In this document: piece after piece, positions 23,742 through 61,545 of the stretch
Numbering within the stretch: the first letter of the stretch is position 1
Layout: the number at the start of each line of letters is the position of its first letter
DNA from: Tubulanus polymorphus
Lineage: Eukaryota > Animalia > Nemertea
Direction: 5' to 3'
Assembly: GCF_964204645.1 (NCBI RefSeq)
Contig: NC_134033.1
Coordinates: 8,378,655 to 8,442,654 of the forward strand
DNA length: 64,000 nucleotides
The notes under the pieces: model-generated
Told to the model about the DNA's origin: nothing
The model's input: only the letters and a program-made list of their open reading frames with translations
Database searches by the model: none
Made by a program: the position numbers and the translations under genes

Positions 23742-23771
23742 TTATATATCCTTAATTTTAACTTTATATTT

Positions 23772-25032: not shown

Positions 25033-25052
25033 TTATTTAACAAAAAAATTAA

Positions 25053-26504: not shown

Positions 26505-26520
26505 TTATATAATTAAAAAA

Positions 26521-27845: not shown

Positions 27846-27861
27846 TTATATAATTAAAAAA

Positions 27862-37207: not shown

Positions 37208-37225
37208 TTATTTATCAAAAAAATT

Positions 37226-37593
37226 ACTATCTTCAAAATATTTAGTTAACTTAGTTATAATTATTTCAACATTTATTTCATTACTAGTTTCATTTGTATA
37301 TATTTCAATTATTATTTTTTAATATCATCGATGATAAAATCTAACTATTTCATCTAATTTTTTCTAAGGTCTTCATCTAATTCATAAAATCTTAAAGATT
37401 CTCTAATTAAATTAGTAATCTTTTCTACATTTAAAGTTTCTTTATCTATTGTTGTTTCATACTCAAATGTTGTTTCATTAGAAAATGCAATATTTTTAAT
37501 ATGTGTAATTACATCATTAATGTTAAATTTCATTTCTTTCTCACGTTTAAAATCAAACCCAAAACATATACTCGGTCCAACAGTTATATTCAT
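37226..37593 (-). pseudogene. Element A hypothetical protein (MNITVGPSICFGFDF)
   Basis: Homolog of B 50903-51243. Confidence 0.6.
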
Positions 37594-37609
37594 TTATATA
37601 ATGAAAAAA

Positions 37610-38365: not shown

Positions 38366-38433
38366 TATTTATAACATAAGAAAATTAACGCTCGTCACTA
38401 AAAATAAATTTTTATAAAATTTTTCCTAAATAA

Positions 38434-39746: not shown

Positions 39747-42700
39747 TAACCATAAGGTAATGTTTTTATACCATCATCTAAAATATGCCTTTTATCATCA
39801 AATGGATTCAAACTAGTTTTTTCAACTTCATTAATGTACATCTCGTGATCTTGTGATCTTAAACAATTCATTTTGTGTTTCATTACAATTGAGTTATATA
39901 AACACTTTATATAATCTTGAAATTCTATATGTTTATCAACCACATGTTTTGTTATTCCTTTTAACTTTTTAGCTTCATGATCTTTTGTTCTATAACTATA
40001 CAATTTACTTCTTATCCCGACAAATTCAATCATTTCATCACCCCCTAATTCATCTTTAAATTTACCAGGAATCTTTTCATTATCATTGCTAAATAGTTCA
40101 TGATCTTTAGGATAATTGCTAAAATCGAAATGATGTTTTAATGTTTTTAAGTCTTTTGTTATGTCATTTGTCTTGATTTTTAGTATGTAGGCGTCAGTAT
40201 TTTTGGCTATTAATGGAAATCCACAGTTAAATGTACCATGTTCAGTTGATAAATCATAAACATAATCTGTTGGGTTATATATTTCAAATAAATCTTTAAC
40301 TTCTTCTGTTAACTCATTTTCTACATGGCTTAAATTAAAACAATTTGGTTTAGATTTAATCAATCCAATATTCATATTAAAACCTAATGAATTGCATAAT
40401 ATATTTAATCCTGATATAGCAACTTTTCCTTTTTGAGCTAAAGATATAGTTTTGCGGTTTTTGAAACTTTTAGTACCATCTGCTGCGTAGAATCCAATGA
40501 AGAACCATTTTCTTAAATTATTTTTTGCATTTAATACATAATCTGGAACTATCTTTTCTTTAGTTGAAGTATTACTTTTCACTATTGCATGAATATAGAA
40601 TTCGTCATTATATTTTATAGCAAAATCTTTAGGATTATTCACATGTATTCTATAACATTGCGATGATTTCATAACATCTATGATTTTAAATGTTTTATGT
40701 GAATAAACTTCTTCACAGAATTTCTTTATTCTTTCTAATAATTTCAAATCTTGATTGCATAAATACCAACAATATTGAGTGTGATAAAGATAATTATACA
40801 CACCTGCTGAACCATCACCCATGAAAAATCCTTTGATAAAATATTCTTTTTCTTCTAATGTTTCGGGTTCTATATTATAAATATTATCAATAATTTCATC
40901 GAATGACATATGATTCATTCTTTGGAAAAATCTTTTATGTAATAATTCATCTCCAATTTTTATATCAGTTGGTTTTATTTCATCGCCATTTCGTTTAATT
41001 AAACTATGATCTTCTGTAACATCTACAAACCCTAATTTAGTTCTAACTCTATAGATTTTCTTATTTGTTTTATGCCTAATAATATTCTTTAATTTTTTCC
41101 ATCCATTTCTTGTCCAAACATCCATTAAGCCATTTATTTGTATTAATTCTTTTTCACCATATGAAATATAACATTCATTTTGTTTTGGAATTATTTCTGA
41201 AATTCTTCTTATCAATATTTTATCATTACATTTTAATAATATTGGGGTGTCAGCTGTTACAGAATCAAAATATAATATTTCAATATGCTTTTCCCCAAAA
41301 AGTGGTTGTAAAACATTATAATAAAAATCATACATTAATAATTTTGATACTTCTAAAACAGTTGAACCAATGAATATAGGTTTATTAAATTTCATTGACG
41401 TTCTTTTTAATTTAACTGCTGTTAAATAATCTTCAAATCTTTTATTTCCCAAATGTCTAGGACTTGATTGTAAATGTCTTAATCTTTCAGAATTATTTAC
41501 TAATTCAATATCATTTCTATTTCTAATATTTTCACATGTTTTACCATAAAAACTATTATTCATTAATTTAAAGAAATCTTTTTCAAAATCTGTTTTTGAT
41601 ATGGTTCTCTGTTGAGTATTAAAATCTATATATTTTTCTAACCACTTCGATTGATTAAATTCAATATATCTATGTACTTTCTTTAATTTCATTCCTTGTT
41701 TTAGATAAAATTTTAACATTCTATAATGAACAATGTAATTGTATTTATTATTTTGAGTAAGTATTAATTTTTCTGTAAAATTATGATCTTTCGGTTTTAT
41801 TTTCTTCTTTCTTCTGGTATTCACTTAAATAACTATCATCTACGACTAAATGTTCTGGGCAATAAGGTAAGTTTCTTGTTTTAAACTTTATATTTTCAGG
41901 ATATTCTAAATCAACTACAAAGAAATAACCAATTGGTGCTTCATCTTTTAAACTCGCAATTGCGCTTTCCCAATCAGTTTTATCACCATTTTCAACTTCT
42001 GTTAATATAAAATTTTTATATGGTTGAGGTTGCATCATTGCCCAGCCATATAAATTATTGGCGTCAATATATAATAATTTATATTCATCATTTGCTTTAA
42101 AATATCTATCTCCCATAACACCACTAATTCCACCTCTAATTGATTTTTCAAATTATAAAACAATATCTATATTTGTTAACAAATCCATTTTTGTATCTGT
42201 AAATTTTAAACCACATTGCCAGGTTAAACCAGGACTAGAGTAGCAATAGCAGGGATCAACATTAAAATGATTCAAATTGACTTCTCTAAATTTTTCAAAT
42301 ATATCGGCTAATATCATAACATCTGATTTTAAGTAAAGATCAACTAATTCACCATGATTTTTAAAATTGAAATGATTCCATATATTCAATGTTTTATGAA
42401 AAACTTCATCTTTCACGTACTCATTTTTTAATTGATCATAAAATTGTTCTTTCATTAATTTTGTTTCTTTGAAATCATCATGCGTTTTATAAAATGAGTA
42501 AGGTATTGCGCCTTTATTTCTCAATAATTTAAAATCTTGTTCATTTGGATAATAATATCGAGTTATTATAAAATCATTATCAACTAAACTTTTTGATAAA
42601 TTATCTAATGAACTTGCTAGAAATCTATAAGAATCTAAAAATCTAATGCAACCAAATTGAAATGAAATATAATTTTCAGATGTTTTAGCTAATAGTTTAA

Positions 42701-43613
42701 AATCATATTTTCTTACATTTACACCATTCATAGCATTATATTCTTCTATTTCTTGATTAATTGCGCCCGATATTCCCGATAATTGTTTTATAAATAGATG
42801 GGCATCATAGCCTGATAAATCATGAAATAATATTGGAACGAAATTTACTTTTTTTAGCTTGTAAATTACAATCTTCATGAGCAGCTCCATGATATTTTGA
42901 ATTTAAATGATCATGATCTCTAACTTTTTTATCAAATGAATAAAAACGTTTTTCACAATAACAACAATGGGTTGCATAATTAAAATCAATTTCATCTTCT
43001 TTTGTCATAACTATTCTTTTATTTTTGTTTAATAATTCTGCAAAATCACTTTCTAATTCAATTATTTTGTTACAAAAATTATTAACTACATCTTCACCTC
43101 TAAAAGAAATATATTGACTTTCATATAATTCAGGATAATTTGATTTTATGTAAATTCCATAAGCAGCAGCTCTTTGATGAACTTTTTTAATTGTATTTAT
43201 AATTGGCGGGTCTTGAATTATATCTTCATTTAGTTCATTTCCTTTATCCATTGATTTAATAATTGCTTTTTGTTGTATATTTCTTTTCTATCTTGATTAG
43301 TTAATTCTTTATTCAACGATTCAAAATCCCCATAAATTACAAATGGAACAATATTTTTAAATTTACGATTAGTAAATCTCAATTTATAATCTTTTTCTGT
43401 TGGCATTATTAATTTACAAAAATCTTTATTATCACATAATTCTTCATGTTTTAATAATGTATTCTCAGTCATTAATTTAGATAAACATTTTCAACATAGA
43501 TAAATTTTATTATGGTGATCGCTTTCTGTTCTAAAGAATAAATCAATTTGTTTTAACCACATATAATGTTCATTTTCATCTTTTTTTTAAATATAACAAA
43601 TCTATAGCATTTT
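39743..43613 (-). pseudogene. Element A pPolB, 3' part (exonuclease, EndoVII/HNH-like insert, palm) containing an intein
   Basis: YGDFES, CCYC...VRDHDHL...GAAH..CNL, HDLSGYDAH, FLDSYRF, YLKSDV, YIDANNLYG.AM, KLMNNSFYGK, YFD[intein]TDA, PGKFKDE and KKLKGI. Confidence 0.93.
40199..41263 (-). mobile_element. Intein (355 aa) with LAGLIDADG homing endonuclease in element A pPolB, reading frame intact
   Basis: Block A SVTADTP, block B DVTEDH, LAGLIDADG helices FIKGFFMGDG and FFIGFYAADG, block F YVYDLST, block G IAKN/T. Splits YFD|TDA. Confidence 0.93.
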
Positions 43614-43698
43614 AGTAATTAGAAGATGGCGTTTTCATACCAGAGTACTAGAGTACTAGACACCACTCATCACCACAAGTAATTTTTTTTCCTAATAA

Positions 43699-46600
43699 AT
43701 GGGGGAGAATGAACACCAGCCAGAAAACAATAATGTTAATGAAAATCAATATCATTGTCCATATTGTAAAAAATACATTAATAAATCTAATAAATCTCAT
43801 CATGAAAAATCTGCAAATCATATAAAAAATATAATAGATTTTAAAACTCCAGAAAATTCCAATGAAAGAAAAGAACGATTAGAAAATATGAATGTGGATG
43901 AAATAAAATGTGAAGTTTGTAATGAATTTATAGTAAAAAGGAATTATAAAAGACATATCAAATCACAAAAACACCATCAAAATTTGAGTAATGATATTTT
44001 AGGAATAGATTATTTCGATGATAAACCTCAACAAGTAAAAAAACCAACTTCAAAAACTAAATCCATTTCAAATAAACCTTACATGGAAAATGTTAGAAAT
44101 TATATTGATTCACTAGAAATAAAAGATACAATTGAAATTTTAGAAACATTACATTCTAAAATTGGTCCTGCGGCTATTATATTTAGATTCTTTAAAGGAA
44201 CAACAATAGAAGATTATAGTAAATTTAATGAAATAATAGAAAAAATACTAGTTTTGATAACAGATGTTGAATATCCAAAAATTAATATCTCTGGGTAAGT
44301 AAGTTTTATAAAGTCAGAAGATAAAATGGATTATAGTATTCAAACACTCTCTGAAGAAATAATTTCAAAAACGCAAATAAAAGAGAAGTTAGAAAAAATA
44401 TTTAATGAATTTAAACGTCATATTGAAGAGAGATATTTAAAGGGTTCTGGTTTAACACTGAATGGAATTATATTTTTAGATTTAAATGTTTATAATACAA
44501 AAAGGAATAAAACATCAAAAAGTAAAACAATGTTTAAAAATGACTCAAACTTTACAACAGAAAAGGATATTAAAGCATCAAGTTATATTAAATTACCATT
44601 TACAACAAAAGCAGTAATAAATGTTCAAAATGAAGATAATAAATGTTTTCTATGGTCAATTATTAGTTGCTTACACCCAACAGAAGATATTACGCATAGT
44701 TTTAGAATAACAAATTACCGGAAATATGAAACATTAAATAAAATTGATCAATATCCAGTAACTATAAAAATGATACCCAAAATAGAAAAAATTAATAAGT
44801 TAAGAATAAATGTATTCGAATTAATGCAATTACCAAAGACAAAAGGTGAAAATATTAAAGATTATACATTGGAAGCTTTATATTTAACAGAATATTATGA
44901 TGATGAAAATGCTATAGATTTGTTATATTACAAAAAAGATGAATATGAACATTATATGTGGTTAAAACAAATTGATTTATTCTTTAGAACAGAAAGTGAT
45001 TTTAACAGTCATAAAATCTATCTATGTAGAAAATGTTTATCTAAATTTAGAACTGAGAATGCGTTACTAAAACATAAAGAATTATGTGATAATAAAGATT
45101 TTTGCAAATTAATAATGCCAACAGAAAAAGATTATAAATTGAAATTTACTACTCATAAATTTAAAAATATTGTTCCATTTGTAATTTATGGGGATTTTGA
45201 ATCGTTGAATAAAGAATTAACTGATCAAGATAGAAAAGAAATATATAACAAAAAGCAATTATTAAAATCAATGGATAAAGGAAATGAATTAAATGAAGAC
45301 ACAACACAAGACCCGCCAATTATAAATACAATTAAAAAAGTTCATCAAAGAGCTGCTGCATATGGAATTTATATAAAATCAAATTATCCCGAATTATATG
45401 AAAGTCAATATATTTCTTTTAGAGGTGAAGATGTAGTTAATGATTTTTGTAACAAAATGATTGAATTAGAAAGTGATTTTGCAAAATTATTAAACAAAAA
45501 TAAAAGAATATTTATGACAAAAGAAGATGAAATTGATTTTAAGTATGCAACTCATTGTTGTTATTGTGAAAAACGTTTTTATTCATTTGATAAAAAAGTT
45601 AGAGATCATGATCATTTAAATTAAAAAATATCGTGGAGCTGCTCATGAAGATTGTAATTTACATGCTAAAAAAGTAAATTTCGTACCAATATTATTTCAT
45701 AATTTATCAGGTTATGATACCCATCTATTTATAAAACAATTATCAAGGAAATTGGGCACAATTAATCAAGAAATAGAAGAATATAATGCTATGAATGGTG
45801 TAAATGTAAGAAAATATGATTTTAAACTATTAGCTAAAACATCTGAGAATTATATTTCATTTCAATTTGGTTGCATTAGATTTTTAGATTCTTATAGATT
45901 TCTAGCAAGTTCATTAGATAATTTATCAAAAAGTTTAGTTGATAATGATTTTATAATAACTCGATATTATTATCCAAATGACCAAGATTTTAAATTATTG
46001 AGATATAAAGGTGCAATTCCTTATTCATTTTATAAAACACACAATGATTTTAATGTAACAGAATTATTAAAAGATCAATTTTATGATCAATTAAAAGAGG
46101 AGTATGTGAAAGACGAAGTGTTTAATAGAACATTAAATATTTAGAACCATTTTAAGATGAAAAATCATGGGGAATTAGTTGATTTATATTTAAAATCAGA
46201 TGTTATGATATTGGCTGACATATTTGAAAAATTTAGAGAAGTTAATTTGAATCATTTTAATGTTGATCCTTGTTATTGCTACTCTAGTCCTGGTTTAACC
46301 TGGCAATGTGGTTTAAAATATACAAATGTAGAATTAGATTTATTAAAAGAACCAGATATGGTTTTATTATTTGAAAAATCATTTAGAGGTGGAATTAGTG
46401 GTGTTATGGGAGATAGATATTTTAAAGCAAATGATGAATATAAATTATTATATATTGACGCCAATAATTTATATGGTTGGGCAATGATGCAACCTCAACC
46501 ATATAAAAATTTTATATTAACAGAAGTTGAAAATGATGATAAAACTAATTGGGAAAGCGCAATTATGAGTTTAGAAGATGAAGCGCCAATTGGTTATTTC

Positions 46601-48767
46601 TTTGTAGTTGATTTAGAATATCCCGAAAATATAAAGTTTAAAACAAGAAACTTACCTTATTGCCCAGAACATTTAACCGTAGATGATAGTTATTTAAGTG
46701 AATACCAGAAGAAAATAAAACCGAAAGATCATGTTTTTACAGAAAAATTAATACTTACTCAAAATAATAAATACAATTACATTGTTCATTATAGAATGTT
46801 AAAATTTTATCTAAAACAAGGAATGAAATTAAAGAAAGTACATAGATATATTGAATTTAATCAATCGAAGTGGTTAGAAAAATATATAGATTTTAATACT
46901 CAACAGAGAACCATATCAAAAACAGATTTTGAAAAAGATTTCTTCAAATTAATGAACAATAGTTTTTATGGTAAAACATGTGAAAATATTAGAAATAGAA
47001 ATGATATTGAATTAGTAAATAATTCTGAAAGATTAAGACATTTACAATCAAGTCCTAGACATTTAGGAAATAAAAGATTTGAAGATTATTTAACAGCAGT
47101 TAAATTAAAAAGAACGTCAATGAAATTTGATAAACCTATATTCATTGGTTCAACTGTTTTAGAAGTATCAAAATTATTAATGTATGATTTTTATTATAAT
47201 GTTTTACAACCACTTTTTGGGGAAAAGCATATTGAAATATTATATTTTGATTCTGTAACAGCTGACACCCCAATATTATTAAAATGTAATGATAAAATAT
47301 TGATAAGAAGAATTTCAGAAATAATTCCAAAACAAAATGAATGTTATATTTCATATGGTGAAAAAGAATTAATACAAATAAATGGCTTAATGGATGTTTG
47401 GACAAGAAATGGATGGAAAAAATTAAAGAATATTATTAGGCATAAAACAAATAAGAAAATCTATAGAGTTAGAACTAAATTAGGGTTTGTAGATGTTACA
47501 GAAGACCATAGTTTAATTAAACGAAATGGTGATGAAATAAAACCACCTGATATAAAAATTGGAGATGAATTATTACATAAAAGATTTTTCCAAAGAATGA
47601 ATCATATGTCATTTGATGAAATAATTGATAATATTTATAACATAGAACCCGAAACATTAGAAGAAAAAGAATATTTTATCAAAGGATTTTTCATGGGTGA
47701 TGGTTCAGCAGGCGTGTATAATTATGTTTGGGGTAATAAATATTGTTGGTATTCATGCAATCAAGACTTAAAATTATTAGAAAGAATTAAGAAATTCTGT
47801 GAAGAAGTTTATTCACATAAAACATTCAAAATCATAGATGTTATGAAATCATCGCAATGTTATAGAATACATGTGAATAATCCTAAAGATTTTGCTATAA
47901 AATATAATGATGAATTCTATATTCATGCAATAGTGAAAAGTAATACTTCAACAAAAGAAAAGATAGTACCAGATTATGTATTAAATGCAAAAAATAATTT
48001 AAGAAAGTGGTTCTTCATTGGATTCTATGCCGCAGATGGCACTAAAAAATTTACAAAGGATAAAAAGATAACATTTGCACAGAAAGGAAAAGTATCAGGA
48101 TTAAATATATTATGCAGTTCATTAGGATTTAATATGAATATAGAATTAATTAAATCTAAACCAATTTGTTTTAATATAAGGCATGTAGAAAAAGAATTAA
48201 CAGAAGAAGTTAAAGATTTATTTGAAATATATAACCCAACAGATTATGTTTATGATTTATCAACAGATGATGGAACATTCAATTCTGGGTTCCCATCAAT
48301 CCAAAAAAAATACCGACAGTTACATACTAAAAATCAAGACAAATGACATAACAAAAGACTTAAAAACATTAAAACATCATTTTGATTTTAGCAATTATCC
48401 CAAAGATCATGAACTATTTAGCAATGATAATAAAAAGATTCCTGGTAAGTTTAAAGATGAATTAGGGGGTGATGAAATGATTGAATTTGTTGGGATAAGA
48501 AGTAAAATGTATAGTTACAGAACAAAAGATCATGAAGCTAAAAAGTTAAAAGGAATAACAAAATATGTGGTTGATAAACATATAGAATTTCAAGATTATA
48601 TAAAGTGTTTATATAACTCAATTGTAATGAAACATAAAATGAATTGTTTAAGATCAGAAGATCACGAGATGTACATTAATGAAGTTGAAAAAACTAGTTT
48701 GAATCCATTTGATGATAAAAGACATATTTCAGATGATGGTATAAAAACATTACCTTATGGCCATTAA
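43699..48767 (+). pseudogene. Element B pPolB (N-terminal zinc fingers, EndoVII/HNH insert, intein)
   Basis: Colinear ORFs 43699-44298, 44326-45624, 45752-46144, 46157-48346 and 48222-48767. Nonsense codons at 44296 and 46142; frameshifts near 45622 and 48303-48310. Confidence 0.93.
47252..48311 (+). mobile_element. Intein with LAGLIDADG endonuclease in element B pPolB
   Basis: YFD|SVTADTP ... KN|TDS with the same blocks as in A. One extra A in an A8 run just before the terminal Asn. Confidence 0.92.
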
Positions 48768-50073
48768 AACATAAAATCAATATCATCATACTCGAAATCA
48801 CTATTGGCTTCTTCATTTTCATTTAATTGTTCTTGTATAATTTGTTTAGGTTCTTCTTCCATTTCATTTTTCTCATTTAAATAAAGTTTTATCTTGTTCC
48901 ACATTTCATCTCGCTCTCTTTGTTTCTTTTTGTTTGTTAATTCGTCAAATGGAATTATAATATCTATGTTTGAATAATTTACAATCTGATTTAAAAAGAA
49001 TTCATAATTAATTGAATCTGTTATTCTATTTTCCAAATGATACATTAATATTTGTTTGAATATTTTTTTTATATTTTCCATATCTTCTTCTGTTAATTTA
49101 GGTTTTTCATAATAATCGTTAAATAATAAATATAAATACATTTTCTTTTGTTTTGTGTTAAATTTTGACGGAATAATTGTTTTTATAATATCTTTTTTAG
49201 TTATTTCACCATTTTTTTCTATTATTTTCATTTTTTCAAGCCATTGCATATATTCTGGTGTATGATCTTCTATAGAAAATATTTTAAAAATTTCATCTAG
49301 ATAATTTAATTTTGGATCTATGAGAAAATTTCTAGTTTTTTCTTCACCCCATAAATTCTTTTGCCATCCACAATCAACACAAAATAACACAGTACCTTCT
49401 TGTCTTAAGGTCGCGTAATTACATTGTGGACATTTTCGTTTATAATCTATTGGTAATAGATCTTTTCTTACGCCTTCTTTATGTTTTATTGTTCTATTAT
49501 GTAGATTTGAATTACTTGTTGTAATAATCAATTTACAATATTTACAATAATATGTTTTTCTTGTTAATTCATTATATTTTTTTTTCTAACTTTTCAACTG
49601 TTTCTTTATCTGGTAACGTTTTCTCATATTTTATTTTTTCTAATAAACTATTTTTTCTTTCATTGAATTCAGTTTCAAATTTATTAGAAATTTTATCTAT
49701 ATGTAATTTACGAAATTGATGATTCTCCCAATCTTCTATATTTTCAGGGCTATATTTTACTCGACAAGGCTCGCAGAAATGATCTTTTATATTATCCTTA
49801 TCATAGAATAAGAAAGGTCTTTTCCAAATACCTTCAGGTTCAACTTCAGCAGAATTACTATTACTTTCATTACTATCAACATTAGCCGTTGCACCATTAA
49901 TTTTACACTTCTCTGAATGTTTTTTAACATAATTTCTTGAGAATAATTTATTACATTTTGGACAGTTTAGTTTAGGGGGTTTATAATTTTCATCATGTTT
50001 TTTTCATATGTCGAGCCATATTACTTTTTCTTAGAAGTTCACCACAAATTTCACATGCTATCGTCTCATCCAT
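48764..50073 (-). pseudogene. Element B zinc finger / VLTF3-like fusion gene
   Basis: TAAATG start at 50073. ELTRKTYYCKYCKLIITT reads through into ORF 48764-49531 (CPQC...CVDC, KIFKQILMYHLEN, SINYEFFLNQI). Upstream frameshifts lie in T runs. Confidence 0.72.
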
Positions 50074-50131
50074 TTATTAGGGAAAAAAATTACTTGTGGT
50101 GATGAGTGGTAATTTTTTTATGTTATAAATA

Positions 50132-50886
50132 ATGGTAGAATTAAAAGAATACAGAAAATTTGTTGATTCTAGAAAACTTACAAATTATAAATCACATAAT
50201 TTACTAGTTCAATTAGATAGAGAATTTAAGAATTGTGAAGATTTAAAATTAGTTAATATAAGTTTATGTAACTCATTTTACAATATATCGGATAAAAGTT
50301 TTGATCATAGATTGTTTATGATTCATGATAAAAATATGGATAAATGGTATAATCTATTTCTAAGAACAGGATTATATAATTTAGAAACATTATCTCAAGA
50401 AATTAATAGAAGAGCTCGGCTAAAAGTGGGTGAATTTGTTGGGTTTAACATTAAATTTAATAAAATTGAAAGTACTAATAAAATAAGAATAAAGTTAACT
50501 AATGAACAATATAAATTCATAGTAAGAAAACCATTAGCTAAAATGCTAGGAGTTAATCCAAATAAAGTTTATTCAAATGTTGATACTACACCAAATATAA
50601 TACCTTTTACGCACTTCTATATTTATTGTAATTTAATTGATCCTACAAAAACATTCGAAGCAACTAAAGATACAATTTGTAATTCTGGTTTATTAAATAT
50701 TTTACTATTAAAAATGTCAAACAATTTGGAACTGAAATAAATTATAATTTAACTGAATGTGATTTCAAACCATGTATTCCACATTTTAATAATTTTAGAT
50801 TAGAAATAAGAAATCATAATGGTTATTTAATTGATTTGAATAACTTTCCTGTGATATATGAATTAGTTATAAGATGTAGAGAGTAA
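50132..50886 (+). pseudogene. Element B minor capsid (penton-like) protein, frameshift near 50712
   Basis: Homolog of A 37610-38365. Confidence 0.75.
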
Positions 50887-50902
50887 TTTTTTCATTATAT
50901 AA

Positions 50903-51243
50903 ATGAATATAACTGTTGGACCGAGTATATGTTTTGGGTTTGATTTTAAACGTGAGAAAGAAATGAAATTTAACATTAATGATGTAATTACACATATCAA
51001 AAATATTGCATTTTCTAATAAAACAACATTTAAGTATGAAAAAACAATAGATAAAGAAACTTTTAACGTAGAAAAGATTACTAATTTAATTAGAGAATCT
51101 TTAAGATTTTATGAATTAGATGAAGATTTTATCATCGATGATATCAAAAAATAATAATTGAAATATATACAAATGAAACTAGTAATGAAATAAATGTTGA
51201 ATTAATCATCACTAAGATAACTAAATATTTTGAAGATAGTAAT
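50903..51243 (+). pseudogene. Element B hypothetical protein
   Basis: ORF 50903-51154 plus a frameshifted tail; homolog in A. Confidence 0.6.
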
Positions 51244-51258
51244 TTTTTTGATAAATAA

Positions 51259-51479
51259 ATGAGTGATAATAAGTGGATAATAACTGGATTATATAATGGA
51301 GCATTACTATCAGTTGGAACTGTTGGTTATTCAATGGTATTAAAAAAGTATTCAAACTGGGAAGTGTTAATGATGATAGATTTGATATCAATGATATTTT
51401 AAAATTAACATTAGCATTTACTTTATCTAATTTAACTATTGATTATTTAGAAAAACAAAAATATATTCCTCCCATATAA
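51259..51479 (+). pseudogene. Element B small hydrophobic protein
   Basis: TAAATG start; homolog of A 36988-37207; frameshifted. Confidence 0.6.
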
Positions 51480-51503
51480 ATGCGTAATTATTTTACTAAA
51501 TAA

Positions 51504-51921
51504 ATGGCTTGTGCAATTATAACTATTATAGGATCGGCAATTGTTAACGCTTTAGCATTTACTGGTGGCGGTTATTTATTTAAGCATATTGATAAAAATA
51601 GTTCATTAGGAAAACAAAGAAGACATAATTTAGCATTAGAGAAATAAAGCAGCAGAAGAATACAGAGAAAAACGACAAAACTATATGGATTATATTAACA
51701 AGGAATTATATGATCAGAAGATTTCACATAGAGATTTTCAATCAGTTGATGATGCAATGAGTTTATATAACGCAGTAACCAATAAAGAAAAATTACATCT
51801 ATACAAACCAAAATTATCAGATTATTATACCCCAAGTAAAGAACAACAGAAATATGAAATAATTTGGATTTTAGGTGGAACAGTTATTGTTATATTTGTA
51901 GCATATAAATTTACTAATTAG
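51504..51921 (+). pseudogene. Element B conserved small protein (IVNALAFTGG)
   Basis: TAAATG start, small deletion near 51645, C-terminal TM segment. Confidence 0.7.
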
Positions 51922-51940
51922 TAATTTTTTTTCTAAATAA

Positions 51941-52375
51941 ATGGAAGATAAAGTTGATAGTATTGATATTATTCCTCATGATTTAAATAAAACTAAATTG
52001 AAAATATATTTAGAAAAACAAATATTAGAATTTGAAAGTGACTTAAAGATAAAAAAGAAAAAATATTTAAAAAGTAAAATTATATATTATTTGATTATAA
52101 GTGGTTCGGTTACAATTAGTTCTGTAATAACATTTCTAGCAATATTCAGTCCATTAACACCTTTAGCTATTTCAATTGGTGTATTAGGATTAAGTTCAAG
52201 TGTTTTAACTGGTATAAGTTCAAAATTAAATATAAAAAGTAATAAAGAGAAAATTAAAACTAATATAAAAGAAATTAATAAATTAAAGAATACACTAGAT
52301 TATATAATAAGTTTAAATGGTCATATAACAGTTGAAGAACAAGATAAATTATTAAAAGAATTAATAAATTATTAA
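51941..52375 (+). CDS. Element B two-TM hypothetical protein
   Basis: Intact 144 aa with a hydrophobic hairpin. Confidence 0.75.
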   Translation: MEDKVDSIDIIPHDLNKTKLKIYLEKQILEFESDLKIKKKKYLKSKIIYYLIISGSVTISSVITFLAIFSPLTPLAISIGVLGLSSSVLTGISSKLNIKSNKEKIKTNIKEINKLKNTLDYIISLNGHITVEEQDKLLKELINY

Positions 52376-52391
52376 TTTTTTAATTATATAA

Positions 52392-53777
52392 ATGGTAGAT
52401 AGTTTTCCAAAAGCTTTCCAATATAATAAATCAATTAAATATAATATTCCAGCAATAGATTTTAATAAAGATATTACATATAGAAATGAAGTTTTAGATT
52501 CATTAACTAATTTAGAAATTTATGTTACTGAAACTAATAATTTTAATGCAAAGATGGAAAATATATTTCATGTATATTTAATTAATTTTAAAAAATTGAA
52601 AGATGAAAAACAATGGTTATTAAAATCTAATATGAAGTATTGGCAGAACCAATTAAATTTTGCTGTTTATTGTGCAACAACAGGATGTGGAATTAGTTGG
52701 AATGATCATTTGAATAATTCTGAATATAAATTAATTCAAAGTTTATTTAGATTTCATACATACTTTCAAATCAGAATAATATTAAATGAATTAGAGTGCG
52801 CTTTACCAGGATCTAGGTATTTTAAAGAATTAGATAATAATATTGATTTATCAAAGTTTTATAAAATTTGTAATGAATTTAATATAGATATAAATAATTC
52901 TGATTTTAGAACAAAAATTGGAACAATAAGATCACTTCCTTGCCCTAAAAAGATTGCAGAATATTGTGCACTTCCCATACCATCTAATAGTTTGTATAAT
53001 ATCTATAGTAATAAATTAGGTTATGGTAAAATACAAACTAAGGATTTAGAATCATTAAATTTCAATAAATTACCGACATTTTATGATAATTTAAAACAAG
53101 AAAACAATAATGGTTGGGTTTATTTCATTTTAGAAAATAATGAAGGTTTTACAAAATCAGGTATACAAAGAATAAATCAATCTATTAGAACTTATTTGAT
53201 ATGTATTTTAGGTGCGCAAGTTGAAACAAGATCCCCAATAATTGGAAATTTAAATACATCATTTGATACACAAAAATTCAAAGTATTATTTGAAGATTCT
53301 ATTCATAATGATAAAAATAGATCGATTCCAGAAAACATTGTAAGATATCAAAATCATTTAGATAAATCTCATGTAAGACTAAATTATTGTATGGGCCCTA
53401 ATCTATTAATTATTTCTAATGATTTAGTACTAAAGATGGGAAACATAATTGGTTACAATAATCTAATTAAAACTGCAACAATAAATAATTCATTTGGATT
53501 AAATGATATAAATAAAAAGATTATTACCGCTCCAAAATTAATGGAAGGTGAAAAAAATAAAAAACACATGCAATCAACAGAAACTAAAACTAAAAATATT
53601 AAATTGCATAATGATTCTAAAATAAAAGATTACAATACATCAGAAAATATAAAAACTGATAATATTCAACATGATATAATTAAAACTAATAATGATAATA
53701 AATTCCATGAAAATACTAAATTAGCTTTAACTTGTACAGGAATTGTTATAGGAGGAATATTATATTTTAAATTTTAA
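52392..53777 (+). CDS. Element B conserved Polinton protein with C-terminal membrane anchor
   Basis: Intact 461 aa: WQNQLNFAVYCATTGCGIS, FRFHTYFQ.R.IL..L...LP, RINQSIRTY..CILGAQ. Confidence 0.8.
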   Translation: MVDSFPKAFQYNKSIKYNIPAIDFNKDITYRNEVLDSLTNLEIYVTETNNFNAKMENIFHVYLINFKKLKDEKQWLLKSNMKYWQNQLNFAVYCATTGCGISWNDHLNNSEYKLIQSLFRFHTYFQIRIILNELECALPGSRYFKELDNNIDLSKFYKICNEFNIDINNSDFRTKIGTIRSLPCPKKIAEYCALPIPSNSLYNIYSNKLGYGKIQTKDLESLNFNKLPTFYDNLKQENNNGWVYFILENNEGFTKSGIQRINQSIRTYLICILGAQVETRSPIIGNLNTSFDTQKFKVLFEDSIHNDKNRSIPENIVRYQNHLDKSHVRLNYCMGPNLLIISNDLVLKMGNIIGYNNLIKTATINNSFGLNDINKKIITAPKLMEGEKNKKHMQSTETKTKNIKLHNDSKIKDYNTSENIKTDNIQHDIIKTNNDNKFHENTKLALTCTGIVIGGILYFKF

Positions 53778-53793
53778 TTTTTTTATTATATAA

Positions 53794-55223
53794 ATGGATG
53801 TAGAAGGTGGAGAAGATATTGGAATGGACCCTTTAGATGAACCTGGTATAACTGATGAACAACAACCTGATTTTAGTGAAACAAGTTTTAATGTCGGTAA
53901 TGAGTCAGGATATAATAATAATTTGAATATGCCTGATTATATTGAAAATGCAGAATCACAATTAAATCCTGAAAATTTAGACCCAGATTTAGTAAAACAA
54001 GATTTAGATAATTTAAACAAAATACCTAAATTAGAAGATTTAATTGAAAAATCTAAACTTAACATAAATGATGAAGACGTTGGACTTTTAGCAGATCAAT
54101 TAAAATTTTTAGATAATGGTAAATGTTATTATCGTTTGAAAGGTGATTATTATATTGATATCACTTATAAAAATAATGAAAATAAAATATTATCAGAATC
54201 AACTTTAGAAAAATTAAAACCAGATAGAATTAAAAGAATAAGTAATAGTAATGAAATAACTGATGTTACACAAAATGAAAGAGATGATAATATAGACGTA
54301 TTTAAACAAAAAATTAATGAATTATTTGAAATAATCAAAAAGAAATCAGAGACAGAAACAACTTCTGAACAGAATATAACTTCCAAAACTAGTAAACTTA
54401 AATCAAATAAAGTTTCAATTGAAAAACTTTTACCGAATGGATTAATTGATGCAACAGATCAAGAATTAGAAGATTTAGATATATTTTCTGATAAAGCAAT
54501 TAGAGAGATTATTAGTATAAGAAATGAAGCTGATAAAATTGCGCATGATAAAAGTATAAGAGATTTAAAAATTAGAACTTTAGAAAAAGAATTAACTGAT
54601 AAAAATAAAAAAATAGAACAATCAAAATTAGATAGAGATAATAAAGTTATTGAAGAAATCGAATTTAAAAAAAGAAATGCGTGTTTAGAAAAAGAAAAGA
54701 TGATTTAGAATATAACATAGAATTACAAAAAGAAGAAATTAAATTATTATTAAAATCATATGATTATAATATTAATAGATTAAAAGTTATTTTTAAAGAT
54801 TTATTGATAAAACCAAATTCTGAAATATCATTGAAAGATAGAATAAAGTTATTATTTAAATTAGAAGGAATAACAATTCTTTCAATTCTAACAGCTGTAA
54901 CTATGTTATTTACAACAATTGGTTTAGCTATATCAAATTCATTAAAATCTACTCCTACTCCAAATAAACCAGATAAACGCCAAGATAATAATTCTATACA
55001 AGATAAAGTTAAGGATGGTTTAAAGAAATTAGCAAAATATTTATGGGAACTATCTAAAAAATCTGCCGCAGCTTTACCAGGAATTATTGCATCAATTGTT
55101 GGTTTTATATTGAAATCTGCTGGGAATATTCTTAACTTTGCTGCTGAACATATTATTTTATTTTTAATAACAGTTGTAAGTGCTATTATTTTTGGGTTAG
55201 TGAATATGATTGAAAATAAATAA
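53794..55223 (+). pseudogene. Element B coiled-coil / hydrophobic C-terminus protein, one frameshift
   Basis: ORFs 53794-54708 and 54681-55223 overlap at an A-rich frameshift. Confidence 0.72.
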
Positions 55224-55243
55224 TTAATTTTTTTGTTAAATAA

Positions 55244-56465
55244 ATGAGTGGGAGTTATATAAGTCCTTCTAAGATTTCTAGAATATCTAATGCTATTAAA
55301 GCAGAAAGATCACATCATATAATTACTCATAATCCTTCAAATATTAATCCCGATGAAACTTTATATGATAGAATTCCTAGATTGACACAAAATACTTTTT
55401 ATGTTCCAAATAGTATTTATTTATCAGCTGATATAAAAGTAATTGGTCATGATAATAATTATGTTGTTGATAATGTTGGGAGATATTTGATTAAAAAATT
55501 AACTCTAAAGATTGGTCCAGAAACAGTTTTCTCATTAGATGATTATAATTTATTTATGCATTATAAAGATTTATGGTTAACTAAAGAAAATAGAAATAAT
55601 ATGATATCTCAGGGTATTCAATCGGAAAACCATAATAAATTAAGATCAGGAGCTAATGACGCAATAGTAACTCGTGCCACAGGTAATTTGATTAAAAAGA
55701 TTTATGGAAGCAAATATAAAATTCCATTAGACTTTATATAAATATGTAATTCAAGAAGATATTATATTTGAGATAACATTTGCTCCTGTAAATGAAATTG
55801 TATTATCTAGCGTTGTTAAAGATATGGGTTATAAATTATCAAATATATGTTTAGAATATGACACAGTAACTAATGAAAATATTGCTAGCACAATTCAAAC
55901 TCGATACAATCAAGGATTTTCATTATTATATGATTATATTGATAAATTTAAAACTGTAACTATTAATGCAAATGATGAAATAATTAATGAGAATATTAAC
56001 TTCCCAAGAAGATCTATTAAAGGTATATTAATATTTTTTACCATTGCAACATATTCTAATGGCGCAATAACGGTTGATAATTATTATAATCCTGAAATAA
56101 CAAAAGTAGAAATAACTATCGAAGGAATAGCAAATAAAATATTTTGTCAAGGAATGAGAATGATAGATCAGTGGCCAGAAATTAGAGAACATTTTATGAA
56201 TGAAAAAGTAAAATCATTTGAAAATTGTAATATTAATCAAATTGATTATTATACCGGCAATAAATATGCATTATGGTTAGATTTTAGAACAACAGAGGAT
56301 AATTCATAACATGGTTCTGGAAAAAAACTACAGAACACAAAAGATGGAATACAATTATTCATGACAAAGAATAAAGGAATCAAAAATTTCAAAATGCACA
56401 TTTATATTATATCTGACGCGCAATTAAATATTGTAAATTCACAATTAGATAGTATTCAATATTAG
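55244..56465 (+). pseudogene. Element B major capsid protein
   Basis: Same MCP motifs as A. A deletion near 55738 removes ELINNNAP; stop at 56307-56309. Confidence 0.8.
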
Positions 56466-56495
56466 AAATATAAAGTTAAAATCAACGATATATAA

Positions 56496-57623
56496 ATGGG
56501 TGGTAAAAAAACTCCTAATACTAAAGAACAATATTTAAGAAATTTATATTGCAACCCTGAGAGTTCGGTTGCTTATTCTTCTACTAAAAATATATGGCGT
56601 CAAGTAAAACAAGATAAATTAGATAAGATAATCACACAAAATTTAGTTAAATATAAAGATATAAATGAATTTATGTTAGAACAACCAACATACACAACAC
56701 ATAAAAAAATTTTTAGAAAATATAAAACTCGTAAAACTATGGTAAGTTATGGAGATCAACAGTGGCAAGGAGATTTAATTGATATGAAAAATGTTAAGAA
56801 AGATAATGATGATTATTGGTGGTTATTGAATATAATTGATATTTTTAGTCGTTATGTATGGAGTTTCCCACTTTATATAAAAGATGCTGTACAAACATCA
56901 AATGTTTTAAGAAAATTTCTTTCGGATGATAAACTAAAACCAGAAAAAATACAATTTGATGATGGAAAAGAATTTGATAATTCACTTGTCCATGAACTCT
57001 TAGATAATCATAATATTAAATATTTTTCAACAAAATCGGATAAAAAAGCAGCAGTTATTGAACGATTTAATAGAACATTAAGAACAAGAATGTGGAAATA
57101 TTTTACAGCAAATAATACTTTTAAATGGATTGATGTTTTACCGAAATTGATAGAAGGATATAATAATTCTTATCATTCTTCTATTGGAATGAAACCTATT
57201 GATGCTAGAAAACCTGAAAATGCTGAAATTGTTTGGAATAATTTATATGGAGCATTTCTTGTAGATGATTTTGGTGAACCTAAATTTAAAGTTGGTCAAA
57301 ATGTTAGAATTTCTAAGTATAAAAAGATATTTGACAAGGGATACGATCGAAATTTTACTAGAGAAATATATAAAATAAAAAAGGTTATAACAACAAAACC
57401 ATATGTCTATAAATTAGAAGATTTAGATGGTGAAGAAGTTGATGGCTACTTCTACGAAGAAGAATTAAGTTTAACTACAGAAAATCTAGAACAAGAATAT
57501 AAAATTGAAAAAGTATTAAAAACAAAAACTATTAAAAGAAAAAAATATTCTTTAGTAAAATGGGTTGGATGGCCGGATAAATTCAATGAATGGATATTAT
57601 CAAGTAAAATTAAAAATATATAA
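56496..57623 (+). CDS. Element B rve integrase with chromodomain, intact
   Basis: 375 aa; DDE triad (GDL, DDGKEF, ERFNRT) and chromodomain YKIEKVL...YSLVKWVGW...NEW. Confidence 0.93.
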   Translation: MGGKKTPNTKEQYLRNLYCNPESSVAYSSTKNIWRQVKQDKLDKIITQNLVKYKDINEFMLEQPTYTTHKKIFRKYKTRKTMVSYGDQQWQGDLIDMKNVKKDNDDYWWLLNIIDIFSRYVWSFPLYIKDAVQTSNVLRKFLSDDKLKPEKIQFDDGKEFDNSLVHELLDNHNIKYFSTKSDKKAAVIERFNRTLRTRMWKYFTANNTFKWIDVLPKLIEGYNNSYHSSIGMKPIDARKPENAEIVWNNLYGAFLVDDFGEPKFKVGQNVRISKYKKIFDKGYDRNFTREIYKIKKVITTKPYVYKLEDLDGEEVDGYFYEEELSLTTENLEQEYKIEKVLKTKTIKRKKYSLVKWVGWPDKFNEWILSSKIKNI

Positions 57624-58230
57624 ATGAATAAGGAATTATTCATATTTGAGCCTCATAGTATGTTAATTTCTGGTGTAACAAATTGTGGAAACTTATTTTA
57701 TATTAAATTTATTAGAAACTGTTTATAAAAACTATTTTGATAATATAGTATTATTTTGTCCAACGTATGAATTTAATCAAACTTATGATAGAAATATTAC
57801 TAGAAATAATAAATTTATTATATTAGATCCTAAAACAGTTAAAGAAAATTTAGATAATTGTATTAAAATAGCAATTGATATTTATAAAGGATCAAATACA
57901 TTATTCATTATAGATGATTGTGCTAATATACATGATTCAAAAGTTAGAGAGAGTGAGTTATGCTACTTAGCTTTTTCTGGCAGACATTTTGGGATAACAA
58001 CTTTGGTTTTAAATCAAAAATATAATTCAATTGTTAAAGACTTTAGAGAAAACATTAGATTTCTAGTTTTATTCTACAATAAAGATAGAAAATCGATGAA
58101 AAATGCACTTGAGGAAAATGATATTATTCCACATGATTTACATAATGAATATATGGATAAGTTGAAAAATATTAAAAGATCAAAATTACTATTTAGATTA
58201 CAACACCCATTTAAATATGAATTTATTTAA
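57624..58230 (+). pseudogene. Element B packaging ATPase, 1-nt deletion in Walker A
   Basis: tgtggaaacttat vs A tgtggaaaaacttat shows a shorter A run. The rest is colinear with A 22006-22614. Confidence 0.85.
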
Positions 58231-58590
58231 ATTCAACTGGCTTGTTAATCTAGTTGAATTCTAGTTATTGGTAGTTGTAACAAAAATCAACTAGATTTAA
58301 CAATATTTTAACTAGCTTGTTAATCTAGTTGAATTCTAGTTACATTCTAGTTGAATTCTAGTTGTTAGTAGTTGGAACAAAAATCAACTAGATTTAACAA
58401 TATTTTAACTAGCTTGTTAATCTAGTTTAATTCTAGTTACATTCTAGTTGAATTCTAGTTGTTAGTAGTTGGAACAAAAATCAACTAGATTTAACAAGAA
58501 ATAAACACAAACAACAATATTTCAACTAGCTTGTTAATCTAGTTGAATTCTAGTTACATTCTAGTTGAATTCTAGTTGCAACATCACAAC
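58230..58590. repeat. Element B CTAG-rich tandem array
   Basis: About 87-bp units (starts near 58310, 58397, 58524) built from ttctagttgaa/ttctagttaca 11-mers. Confidence 0.88.
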
Positions 58591-58609
58591 TAATTTTTTT
58601 GTTATATAA

Positions 58610-59215
58610 ATGGTAGGTGAAAAGAAAATAAAATCTAAAAATGGTGATGTTCCAATTGAAAAAACTTTAGATGATTTAGGAATAACAGAAACAAAATAAA
58701 CTCCAGATGATGGTGTTATAAATAATGTTACAACAAATAATAATTATGAATATTATCTTTATTGTAAACATCAATTAGAAATATTAATAGCATCTGGAAA
58801 ATGTAAAAATTTTGTCGGTAAAAATTTAATTTATAATGAATTAGATACAATGAAATCAGATGAAATTATTAGATTATTTAAGATTTATGAAGCCGCGAGA
58901 ACAGCTAGAATTAATGATGCGATATCAGAAAATGTAGTAAAAGGTTATAGTAAATTATGTAATTATATACTACCAATTGAAGATGAAAATAGATTATATT
59001 CCGATTTAAAAAATGATTATTTAGTTATGACTGAATTAAATAAATGGATTGGATATTTATCATTTCAATTAGGTGGATTTATGACATTATTATCAACTGG
59101 AGTTATAACATTATCAAATATTGAAAGTAAAAATATTTCTATAATAAATGAACAAGGCGGAAGAAGTGAAGGAATTAACTGTGAACAAAAAACCGAGATC
59201 ACAGAAACAAATTGA
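58610..59215 (+). pseudogene. Element B conserved hypothetical protein with an early stop
   Basis: Homolog of A 21110-21700; TTA>TAA near 58697. Confidence 0.72.
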
Positions 59216-59513
59216 ATGGTCTCGGCAATTAGGAATTAAATCACAAGAATATAAAAAAGCTGTAAAAGAAAAGATAAGTGATAAAAATGTTAATAGAAAT
59301 AGTGAAAATATTGTTATTTCTACTCCTTCTTATGATAGAATATTTGATAAATGTCTATATTTTACAGTTGGATTTGTAATTGTATTCATTTTGATTGGGT
59401 GTAATTGGTATAAGAAATCAAATAAAATTCATGATATTAATAATTCTGAAACAACTGCTATCAAAAATGAAAATAATTCTGAAATTCCAAAATTGACGAT
59501 AAAAATGGATTAA
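59148..59513 (+). CDS. Element B single-TM protein
   Basis: Intact 121 aa, TAAATG start, LYFTVGFVIVFILIG segment. Confidence 0.7.
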   Translation: MNKAEEVKELTVNKKPRSQKQIEWSRQLGIKSQEYKKAVKEKISDKNVNRNSENIVISTPSYDRIFDKCLYFTVGFVIVFILIGCNWYKKSNKIHDINNSETTAIKNENNSEIPKLTIKMD

Positions 59514-59664
59514 TATTTTAGAAAAAAAGCAAAATAAAATATTTTTTTTTAATTAATTGAATATCTCACTACTTTTGTCTATCTATGCGGAGCAATTAAA
59601 TTGTCCAGATAAGTCATTTCGGATTCTAGATATTCATTATTTTTATTAATTTATTTTTTTAAAT

Positions 59665-59990
59665 TTAATCAACAATTTCTAAATCATGATGGCCATCTTC
59701 ATTTTTTCCATGATAGATTATTTTAAATCCTTCTAAATCTTTTAATTCCTCTGTACTCAATGAAGCCCATTTATCAGGTAAAAATACTTTGAATTCTCGC
59801 GATGTACTAACATTACAGTAGCTTAAATTAGCTGATACTTTCTCTCCATATTTAGTTTTTATCTTTTCTAATTTCAATATTTTATGTTAAATTTCTTTTG
59901 TAACATCAACTAACTTTTTTATTTCAAATTGTTTTTTGCTGGTTTAATTCTGTTATTTATTGTTGCTAAGAATGCTTTTCTATCTCCCAT
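59665..59990 (-). CDS. Element B small terminal protein (KTKYG..VFLP), split by a -1 frameshift
   Basis: Same organisation as A 19427-19752, including the A AAA AAC site. Confidence 0.55.
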
Positions 59991-60249
59991 TTATAAGGAA
60001 AACAAATTACTTGTGGTGATGAGTGGGGATTACTTCCCCCCTGTATATAACGAACACACTATTAACCGTTCTCATCCAGTTCTCAGTAGAGACTCACCGT
60101 ATCGATCTATCCACGCGCAGATGTTGTTACGCGCACTCACTGTATACGTGTATCACAGAGCAATCGTCCGTTCTCACTAGAGCCTAGCTGTGATGAGTGG
60201 TGTCTAGTACTCTAGTACTCTGGTATGAAAACGCCATCTTCTAATTACT

Positions 60250-61460
60250 CATTTCCATCATCATAATATTCTGTTAAATATAAAGCTTCCAATGTATAAT
60301 CTTTAATATTTTCACCTTTTGTCTTTGGTAATTGCATTAATTCGAATACATTTATTTTTAAATTATTAACTTTTTCTATTTTAGGAATCATTTTTATAGT
60401 TACTGGATATTGATCAATTTTATATAATGTTTCATATTTCCGGTAATATGTTATTCTAAAACTATGTGTAATATCTTCTGTTGGATGTAAGCAACTAATA
60501 ATTGCCCACAGAAAACATTTATTATCTTCATTTTGAAGATTTATTACTGCTTTTGTTGTAAATGGTAATTTAATATAAGATGATGCTTTAATATCCTTTT
60601 CTGTTGTAAAATTTGAATCATTTTTAAACATTTCATTACTTTTTGATGTTTTATTTCTTTATGTATTAAAAACATTGAAATCTAAATATATAATTTCATT
60701 CAATGTTAAGCCAGAACCCTCAAAATATCTTTCTTCAATATGACGTTTAATTTCATTAAATATTTTTTCTAATTTCTCTTTTATTTGTGTTTTTGAAATT
60801 ATTTCTTCAGAGTGTATTTGAATATTATAATCCATTTTTTCTTCTGACTTTATAAAACTTACTTTCCCAGAGATACTAATTTTTGGATATTCAACATCTG
60901 TTATCAAATCTAGTATTTTTTCTATTATTTCATTAAATTTACTATAATCTTCTATTGTTGTTCCTTTAAAAAATCTTAATATAATAGCCGCAGTACCAAT
61001 TTTACTATGTAATGTTTCTAAAATTTCAATTGTATCTTTTATTTCTAGTGAATCAATATAATTTCTAACATTTTCCATGTAAGGTTTATTTGAAATGGAT
61101 TTAGTTTTTGAAGTTGTTTTTTTTTACTTTTTGAGGTTTATCATCGAAATAATCTTTTCCTAAAACATTATTACTCAAATTTTGGTGGTGTATTTGTGAT
61201 TCGAGATGTCTATTATAATTCCTTTTTACTATAAATTCATTACAAACTTCACATTTTATTTCATCCACATTCATATCATCTAATCGTTCTTTTCTTTCAT
61301 TGGAATTTTCTGGAGTTTCAAAATCTATAACATTTTTTATATGATTTGAAGATTTTTCATGTTTAGATTTATTAGATTTATCGATGTATTTTTTACAATA
61401 TGGACAATAATATTGATTTTTATTAACATTATTGTTTTCTGGCTGGTGTTCATTCTCCAT
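60250..61460 (-). pseudogene. Element A pPolB, 5' part (N-terminal zinc fingers)
   Basis: MENEHQPE...CPYC, CEVC, N.DNKCFLW.I...LHP. Colinear with B 43699-44910 and continues at 43613. Confidence 0.9.
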
Positions 61461-61545
61461 TTATAAGGAAAAATAATTACTTGTGGTGATGAGTGGTGTC
61501 TCGTACTCTCGTACTCTGGTATGAAAGCCTACTTTTCCTATTACT

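Follow-up and report, generated by a model that had tools for sequence, protein, structure and literature searches.

Two questions about animal Mavericks (Polintons) are open, by what means their genes are expressed and whether large DNA viruses are needed for it, and a stretch of animal DNA from the nemertean Tubulanus polymorphus bears on both. The window that we analysed, 64,000 nt of contig NC_134033.1, contains nested Polintons: one, copy B, lies within the pPolB gene (protein-primed DNA polymerase B) of its sister, copy A, and most genes of both begin with the same motif, ATAAATG. An earlier reading of this DNA (the original prediction) likened the motif to poxvirus late promoters. We find that the start signal is real, non-random and lineage-specific. 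We suggest, with a probability of about 0.6, that it serves the RNA polymerase of some large DNA virus, present by co-infection, as a late or intermediate promoter, and that the element is a virophage-type parasite of that virus.

The signal at the gene starts

All 15 gene starts listed for copy B in the original prediction were confirmed. ATAAATG stands at 14 of them, compared with 13/653 other ATGs in B (Fisher p 8e-21), and the fifteenth, at 50132, is TAAATAATG. The T-run said to precede most starts is also there: a run of five Ts ending at -8 to -14 is found at 10/15 starts versus 35/653 other ATGs. As predicted, the motif opens most genes of copy A (13/15, with one TAAATAATG variant and one ATACATG) and the starts at 10751 in element D and 63798 in copy E; it is present at 19197 as well. 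Copies A and B are 89-94% identical, and their counts are therefore not independent. In the host DNA of the window (positions 1-9600), TAAATG occurs at 7/411 ATGs.

The conserved sequence extends upstream of the motif and is stricter there than the T-run of the original prediction. Counted from TAAAT, A-18 and A-17 are present in 15/15 B starts, T-19 and T-14 in 14/15 and T-13 in 12/15; the combination of A-18, A-17 and T-14 marks 14/15 starts versus 2/36 non-start TAAATG sequences in B. The complete signal spans 22 nt: TAA occupies -19 to -17, a T-tract has its centre at -13, and ATAAATG (once TAAATAATG) follows; the integrase gene, the ATPase gene and gene 59148 have an A-rich variant. At 50132, TAAAT lies 3 nt earlier than elsewhere and the upstream TAATT is displaced equally, in both A and B. 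Because the upstream element shifts together with TAAAT, it is tied to the start site and not to the ATG. By this phasing the signal has the geometry of a transcription start signal, and we infer that it functions as one. When a matrix was trained on the related loci L001-L004 alone and 127,954 window positions were scored, A or B starts took the first 22 places, and all 30 such starts fell within the top 55; L001-L004 are orthologous, so this ranking partly reflects shared ancestry.

Two other roles for the signal were tried and rejected. No AG is found at -16 to -1 in any of the 15 B starts (it is present in 2/26 starts in relatives), which rules out a trans-splice acceptor. Stop-start coupling, in which TAA and ATG are joined as they are between integrase and ATPase, accounts for 1/15 B starts and 2/54 in relatives. 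The TAA at -19 doubles as the preceding stop codon in 2/15 B starts, and four B starts have no same-strand gene upstream.

Polintons and viruses with similar gene starts

The comparison with other Polintons was built on a conserved 461-amino-acid (aa) protein of B (52392-53777), which gave 137 homologues; with an alignment of 61 of them plus the query, 367 metagenome loci were found, of which the best 80 were taken. Starts were counted for core genes whose starts agree with those of homologues. The protein itself has a confident predicted fold (pLDDT 78) and no structural match in BFVD or the PDB representatives, which does not establish a new fold.

TAAATG stands at 22/25 anchored starts in L001-L004 (GC 20-23%) and at 27/30 in a second group of nine loci (group 2; GC 27-38%), there mostly as TTAAATG. 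The two groups were defined after their starts had been inspected; together they have TAAATG at 49/55 anchored starts, versus 10/263 in the other 67 loci. The original prediction had named an equal frequency in unrelated Polintons as grounds for giving it up, and the motif proved far rarer there; the enrichment that it expected over an AT-rich background was seen too, with thirteen AT-rich control loci having TAAATG at 3/64 starts. A purine occupies -3 in 200/263 starts of the other 67 loci, the opposite of the T found here, and a Kozak context was rejected on these grounds. Short intergenic gaps, by comparison, lost their value as evidence for a viral polymerase. From 51504 to 59148 the genes of B that lie in tandem are separated by 19, 16, 16, 20, 31, 0, 379 and -68 nt, and motif-less Polintons are equally compact, with 50/82 tandem gaps of at most 30 nt and divergent ATGs 3-12 nt apart.

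A quick IQ-TREE tree of 67/81 rows (those without an open reading frame (ORF) of at least 250 aa were excluded), subject to compositional bias and long branches, groups L001-L004 with the window (support 99) and places seven of the nine group-2 loci in a clade of their own (100). Of the other two, L019 forms a long branch and L015 is outside the tree. L005, sister to the window's clade, is without the motif (0/3). Relatives at 66-69% protein identity keep the fixed columns: the best-kept upstream base in L001-L004 is T-13 (25/26), followed by A-18 (24/26). In group 2 the peak is at T-14 (26/28), with T-13 in 17/28. Three divergent pairs in group 2 (L008, L009 and L015) lie exactly 14 nt apart as a near-palindromic CATTTA-N8-TAAATG, and therefore each TAAAT complement supplies its partner's T at -15 to -13. 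Back-to-back starts in this group also overlap at a fixed -22 nt (L006, L008, L013). Two side observations concern the relatives: L002 has a deoxynucleoside kinase gene at 10340-10981 (-) (Pfam dNK 1.7e-31) behind the same promoter-like motif, and the Polinton contigs L236-L238 sit in three bacterial metagenome-assembled genome records, probably through host contamination.

Among viruses, a close parallel is vaccinia. According to a review (PMC11980589), TAAATG overlaps the start codon in its late promoters, with T conserved as the tenth base upstream of TAAAT, while its intermediate promoters are AT-rich 15-19 nt upstream. The late layout put forward in the original prediction agrees with this published consensus down to that T. 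In B, TAAAT followed by G or A lies at the start codon in 15/15 cases (14 TAAATG, 1 TAAATA), and the T 10 nt upstream of TAAAT, which is T-13, is present at 12/15 starts in B and 25/26 in L001-L004. A-18 lies 15 nt upstream of TAAAT in 15/15, at the edge, with A-17, of the AT-rich zone of intermediate promoters, but just 3/15 starts are without T-13, as an intermediate promoter would be. The signal is therefore like vaccinia late and intermediate promoters (PMC11980589, PMC5294985) in having TAAAT over the ATG, a T 10 nt ahead of TAAAT amid other Ts and an A-rich zone about 15 nt upstream. It is unlike them in lying in a 16.6-kb integrated element that has no polymerase and in serving all genes of that element, and in its A-4 (40/40 window-clade starts) and A-18 (38/40). 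TAAATG is also described for salmon gill poxvirus (PMC4542343) and for an entomopoxvirus gene (PMC3061580). On every feature that can be tested in sequence the motif matches the poxvirus late promoter, and we regard it as a candidate for that class. The poxvirus consensus was taken from papers and not from a matrix; a motif scan of IMG/VR had one poxvirus terminal stretch among the matches listed, which were mostly due to chance.

The poxvirus label of the original prediction is nevertheless too narrow. The IMG/VR scan also returned contigs with MSV199, Bro-N, 2C-adaptor kinase, XRN and NAD ligase, and from gene content we take L201-L229 to be invertebrate iridoviruses. These iridovirus-like contigs have TAAATG at 83/192 ORFs of at least 100 aa, nearly always as AATAAATG (14/34 loci chosen against redundancy; some contigs are near-duplicates). 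They resemble the window in two respects, ATAAATG at many starts and AT-only sequence from -16 to -12. The A at -5 that belongs to AATAAATG is present at 80/86 of their starts versus 20/40 in the window clade, and for AATAAATG the figures are 79/86 versus 20/40; T-13 is found in 39/86 versus 36/40, and A-18 in 41/86 versus 38/40. On these few positions, and with a consensus from papers, the poxvirus pattern appears to be the better fit. No protein of B or its relatives matched the iridovirus-like loci, the L002 kinase matching L235 only, and a literature search on 'iridescent virus' with TAAATG found no paper on iridovirus TAAATG starts.

Copy B also has a gene, at 50073(-), for a predicted VLTF3-like factor; neither A nor B has it unbroken. 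Close homologues of the C-terminal part, which is open, are P0188 (N-terminus as L002 ORF 11054) and P0189. HMMER found four proteins with this piece, of which P0190, a terpene synthase, was dropped as a false match, and word-based protein searches with it gave no match. In structural searches of BFVD, Foldseek returned 11 matches at E<=0.001, seven of which bear the name late transcription factor or VLTF3, those of cowpox virus (1.6e-6) and two entomopoxviruses included; cowpox virus ranks 2 and a wasp entomopoxvirus 4. Medusavirus and Feldmannia virus are also among the matches. By this fold match the protein is a predicted member of the VLTF3 (A2) family, whose mark is a zinc ribbon and a helical VLTF3 domain. 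VLTF3 has already been reported in some Polintons (PMC11131425, PMC8502044). No relatives of the integrase, the 461-aa protein, the VLTF3-like protein or the ATPase were found in IMG/VR.

Which polymerase would read the signal

All genes carry the motif, the element is without a polymerase (no RNA polymerase match among the 34 window ORFs scanned with Pfam), and T-3 together with the in-frame TAA suits a slipped A-leader; for these reasons we consider the post-replicative polymerase of a helper virus the likeliest reader. The integrated copy would be silent to host RNA polymerase II (Pol II). On infection, the helper's polymerase would start in the AAA and slip, giving a 5' poly(A) leader of the kind described in PMC4542343, and this leader would stand in for two features ahead of the ATG, the T at -3, which is unfavourable, and the TAA in frame. 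The element's VLTF3 might then supplement or redirect the helper's late-factor set, and the pPolB, ATPase and capsid genes would copy and package the genome inside the helper's factory. Since all genes, including the VLTF3-like one, carry the motif, a separate early class is absent. Because the iridovirus-like contigs also start so many ORFs with TAAATG, the helper need not be a poxvirus: we put a poxvirus-type helper slightly above even odds, an iridovirus or ascovirus-type one at clearly less than that, and a helper of some other type as rather unlikely.

Several points weigh against a viral polymerase. TAAATG alone is no proof of one, because the iridovirus-like contigs use it and iridovirus early genes require host Pol II (PMC5294985, section 9). 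Of 49 coral Polintons, about half have expressed genes (PMC11131425). The reading is drawn from DNA sequence, and the motif fits two virus groups. The AlphaFold model of the VLTF3-like protein, made from five sequences, is moderate (pLDDT 66, TM score 0.31-0.47), and it had no match in the PDB at E<=0.001; Pfam PF04947 did not match the protein, and Atlas gave VLTF3 as a lead only (0.77). Motif and VLTF3 are seen together only in the window and in L002, further loci with the motif being too short to judge. VLTF3 also occurs in viruses that are not known to have an RNA polymerase of their own, such as Medusavirus and Feldmannia virus.

That last point leads to the alternative that survives best, although we hold it to be well short of probable: host Pol II would read the motif in the nucleus with the element's own VLTF3-like factor, and the element would be autonomous. 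Besides encoding such a factor, which viruses thought to use host Pol II also have, the element shares a similar start motif with iridoviruses, themselves partly Pol II users, and TATATAAA lies at -8 to -1 in 6/15 B starts. However, a TATA box at -8 would, by the established geometry, put the Pol II start within the ORF, and transcription that begins in the AAA and does not slip gives a leader of 1-3 nt. The VLTF3-like gene has the same motif as the rest, and therefore nothing would be present to boot the cycle. The coding strands, moreover, contain 4.4-5.6 AATAAA per kb. Compared with synonymous-codon shuffles, this poly(A) signal is not depleted in B (54 in 12.4 kb of coding strand versus 56) or in L001-L004 (99 versus 98); motif-less Polintons likewise show no depletion (58 versus 49.5), which takes from the force of the argument for a viral polymerase. 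The terminator-like TTTTTNT is scarcer in coding strands than expected, with 5 versus 16 in B and 6 versus 14.5 in L001-L004; its complement is also lowered (72 versus 95), and group 2 is not depleted (13 versus 14). In B, TTTTTNT follows within 250 nt of the stop in 7/11 genes checked, and the T-runs may, as the original prediction suggested, act as terminators.

Much less likely is that the polymerase comes in trans from a cytoplasmic element that is not viral or from a larger sister element, or that the signal is a relic of such a past. Yeast pGKL2 serves pGKL1 with a polymerase, and no polymerase-supplying animal element of this kind is known. Cytoplasmic linear plasmids derive from Polintons (PMC11161782) and the AT content here is very high, but none of the 34 window ORFs scanned matched a polymerase, and a relic would not be expected to keep its fixed columns across relatives at 66-69% protein identity. 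Least likely of all is that the signal is no promoter but translation context, stop-start coupling, a trans-splice acceptor, the previous gene's poly(A) signal or AT drift: in its favour are the elements' AT content of about 76%, the overlap of AATAAA with 20/40 clade-1 starts and the TAA-ATG joint between integrase and ATPase, but T-3, the rarity of that joint, the missing AG, the four starts without a same-strand gene upstream, the tracking of TAAAT by the upstream element and the AT-rich controls all argue otherwise.

Reading by a helper virus's polymerase, which we prefer, has precedents among protist elements. EMALE04 and mavirus carry the late motif of Cafeteria roenbergensis virus (CroV) and belong to the type that CroV induces (PMC10945749), and Gezel-14T is related in this way to Phaeocystis globosa virus (10.1101/2022.07.28.501842); virophage use of helper promoters is treated further in 10.1101/2025.10.09.676808. 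Like copy B with its probable capsid gene, these are small integrating, capsid-coding elements whose starts copy, or in our case may copy, a large-virus promoter, with clade-specific motifs. They are unlike it in coming from protists, in their motifs and in having helpers that are known; copy B is a Maverick of the canonical animal type, and its motif is TAAAT. The entomopoxvirus-associated Polinton-like viruses of Barth et al. 2024 (PMC11296320) are, similarly, proposed hyperparasites of invertebrate poxviruses. By description they are set apart from B, with highly divergent capsids and a location in occlusion bodies, and the main text of that paper has 0 occurrences of 'promoter', 'transcription', 'VLTF' and 'TAAAT'.

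With animal Mavericks, Polintons and adintoviruses (PMC8097293, PMC8502044, PMC11131425, 10.64898/2026.06.19.733378) copy B shares pPolB, an rve integrase, an A32 ATPase, a probable capsid, terminal inverted repeats (TIRs) and a 6-nt target-site duplication (TSD). It differs from them, as far as those accounts describe the elements, in its start motif, in the pPolB intein and in having no detected protease; no protease family, such as the adenovirus-like cysteine protease of Polinton/Maverick group 1, matched among the Polinton ORFs of the 34 scanned, several B ORFs being without assignment. Dependence of vertebrate Mavericks on iridoviruses is a hypothesis of Barreat and Katzourakis (PMC8097293), and according to 10.64898/2026.06.19.733378 no virion of a Maverick has been described. 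In the open-access literature we found no account of TAAATG as a Polinton promoter; 10.64898/2026.10.13.758929 gave 0 matches for the searched terms.

We tentatively propose a wider hypothesis, which we think doubtful as it stands: some canonical animal Mavericks may be endogenous virophages that parasitise viruses of the poxvirus type. Two lineages or more would have adapted every one of their promoters to the late polymerase of poxviruses, and one of these lineages would have VLTF3 as well. The many copies here would then be an infection-triggered defence, and start motifs would predict the giant virus parasitised. If true, virophage promoter mimicry extends from protists to animals. With a clade-specific signal of 22 nt in the geometry of poxvirus late promoters, the helper hypothesis becomes testable with a reporter and by mapping 5' ends, and the motif could serve as a sequence marker to sort thousands of Mavericks by likely helper.

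Copy B, its genes and its surroundings

Copy B has the marks of a Polinton/Maverick (Table 1). Its TIRs are 60 nt long and perfect (43614-43673 and 60190-60249), with 5'-AG ends beginning AGTAAT, and its target duplication is of 6 nt with one mismatch. The genes comprise an intein-bearing pPolB, an integrase with rve and chromodomain, an A32 ATPase, a probable major capsid and about ten others; six are broken. The starts of broken genes 50073, 51504, 57624 and 58610 agree with intact orthologue N-termini in L002, that of 51259 with its A-copy family and L002 1733, and that of 59990 with copy A only. The integrase (56496-57623) is intact (rve E 3.6e-9, plus a chromodomain). The packaging ATPase is broken in B, and its counterpart in copy A matches Pox_A32 with E 2e-13. 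Sub-threshold Pfam matches to Capsid_N (E 9e-4) and DUF5901 (E 5e-3) were seen for the probable major capsid gene and gene 50132, the latter likely encoding a minor capsid.

Table 1. Elements, genes and promoter-like sites in the window
Feature	Position	Strand	Remark
Polinton/Maverick copy B	43614..60249	+	within pPolB gene of copy A; 16.6 kb
Copy A, sister; holds B and a Pao-type retrotransposon	19342..61545	-	same motif at gene starts; TSD TACTTG
Promoter-like motif, pPolB	43680..43701	+	TAA, T-tract, ATAAATG; cassette CCACTCATCACCACAAG ahead
pPolB gene, broken	43699..48767	+	LAGLIDADG intein ~47256-48320
Zinc-finger and predicted VLTF3-like late transcription factor gene, broken	48764..50073	-	C-terminal part open, 48767-49558
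Promoter-like motif, VLTF3-like gene	50071..50092	-	
Promoter-like motif, gene 50132	50110..50134	+	TAAAT 3 nt ahead of usual site
Motif, gene 50903	50884..50905	+	
Motif, small gene 51259	51240..51261	+	
Motif, gene 51504	51485..51506	+	
Motif, gene 51941	51922..51943	+	weak SLATT match
Motif, 461-aa conserved gene 52392	52373..52394	+	upstream TAA doubles as preceding stop codon
Motif, gene 53794	53775..53796	+	upstream TAA doubles as preceding stop codon
Motif, probable major capsid gene (55244-56464, broken)	55225..55246	+	
Motif, integrase gene 56496-57623	56477..56498	+	A-rich variant without T-tract
Motif, packaging ATPase gene	57605..57626	+	A-rich variant within integrase codons
Motif, gene 58610	58591..58612	+	
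Motif, gene 59148	59128..59150	+	A-rich variant within upstream ORF
Motif and cassette, gene 59990	59988..60009	-	
Motif-like start of ORF 10751, element D	10732..10753	+	
Motif and cassette, first gene of copy E	63779..63800	+	truncated by window end

The pPolB gene is presumably correctly identified: the family B motifs were read off its translation, Pfam naming the intein only. That LAGLIDADG intein (47256-48320, +), with its counterpart in copy A, interrupts pPolB at catalytic motif C (Pfam E 1e-5, below the cut-off). An intein-free allele exists as well, one contig of run X1 skipping exactly 1065 nt at this place.

The B starts at 43699, 50073 and 59990 share one duplicated 40-nt cassette. 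Its CCACTCATCACCACAAG part lies at 43663-43679, 50093-50109 and 60010-60026, ahead of the three putative promoters, and its core is the TIR end. Between the divergent pair 50073/50132, CCACTCATCACCACAAG is present in B and not in A, and the promoter spacing is kept in both. The sole long intergenic gap of B is occupied by 97-nt tandem repeats (58249-58578) that are TCTAGTTGAAT-rich; copy A is similar.

Read depth over copy B was 148-941 in one DNA run, single-copy depth not being available as a scale. As most of the reads mapped to B are 90-99% identical to it (44,504/52,221) and few are at least 99% identical (1,688), the B family appears to consist of many diverged copies.

Other elements surround the two copies. 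Inside copy A is a Pao/BEL long terminal repeat (LTR) retrotransposon (28449-36676) with 300-nt LTRs that are 97% identical. The decayed pPolB of a third Polinton, 70-73% identical, lies at 14966-19200 (-) with ATAAATG at its start, 19197. Element D, a small inverted-repeat element at 9707-12288, contains the zinc-finger ORF 10751 and a 198-nt tandem repeat, and at 12168-12288 there is a 120-nt unit resembling a miniature inverted-repeat transposable element, with ends of the Polinton type. Host collagen IV exons, identified by eye from the triple helix and NC1 domain, occupy 965-5583 (+).

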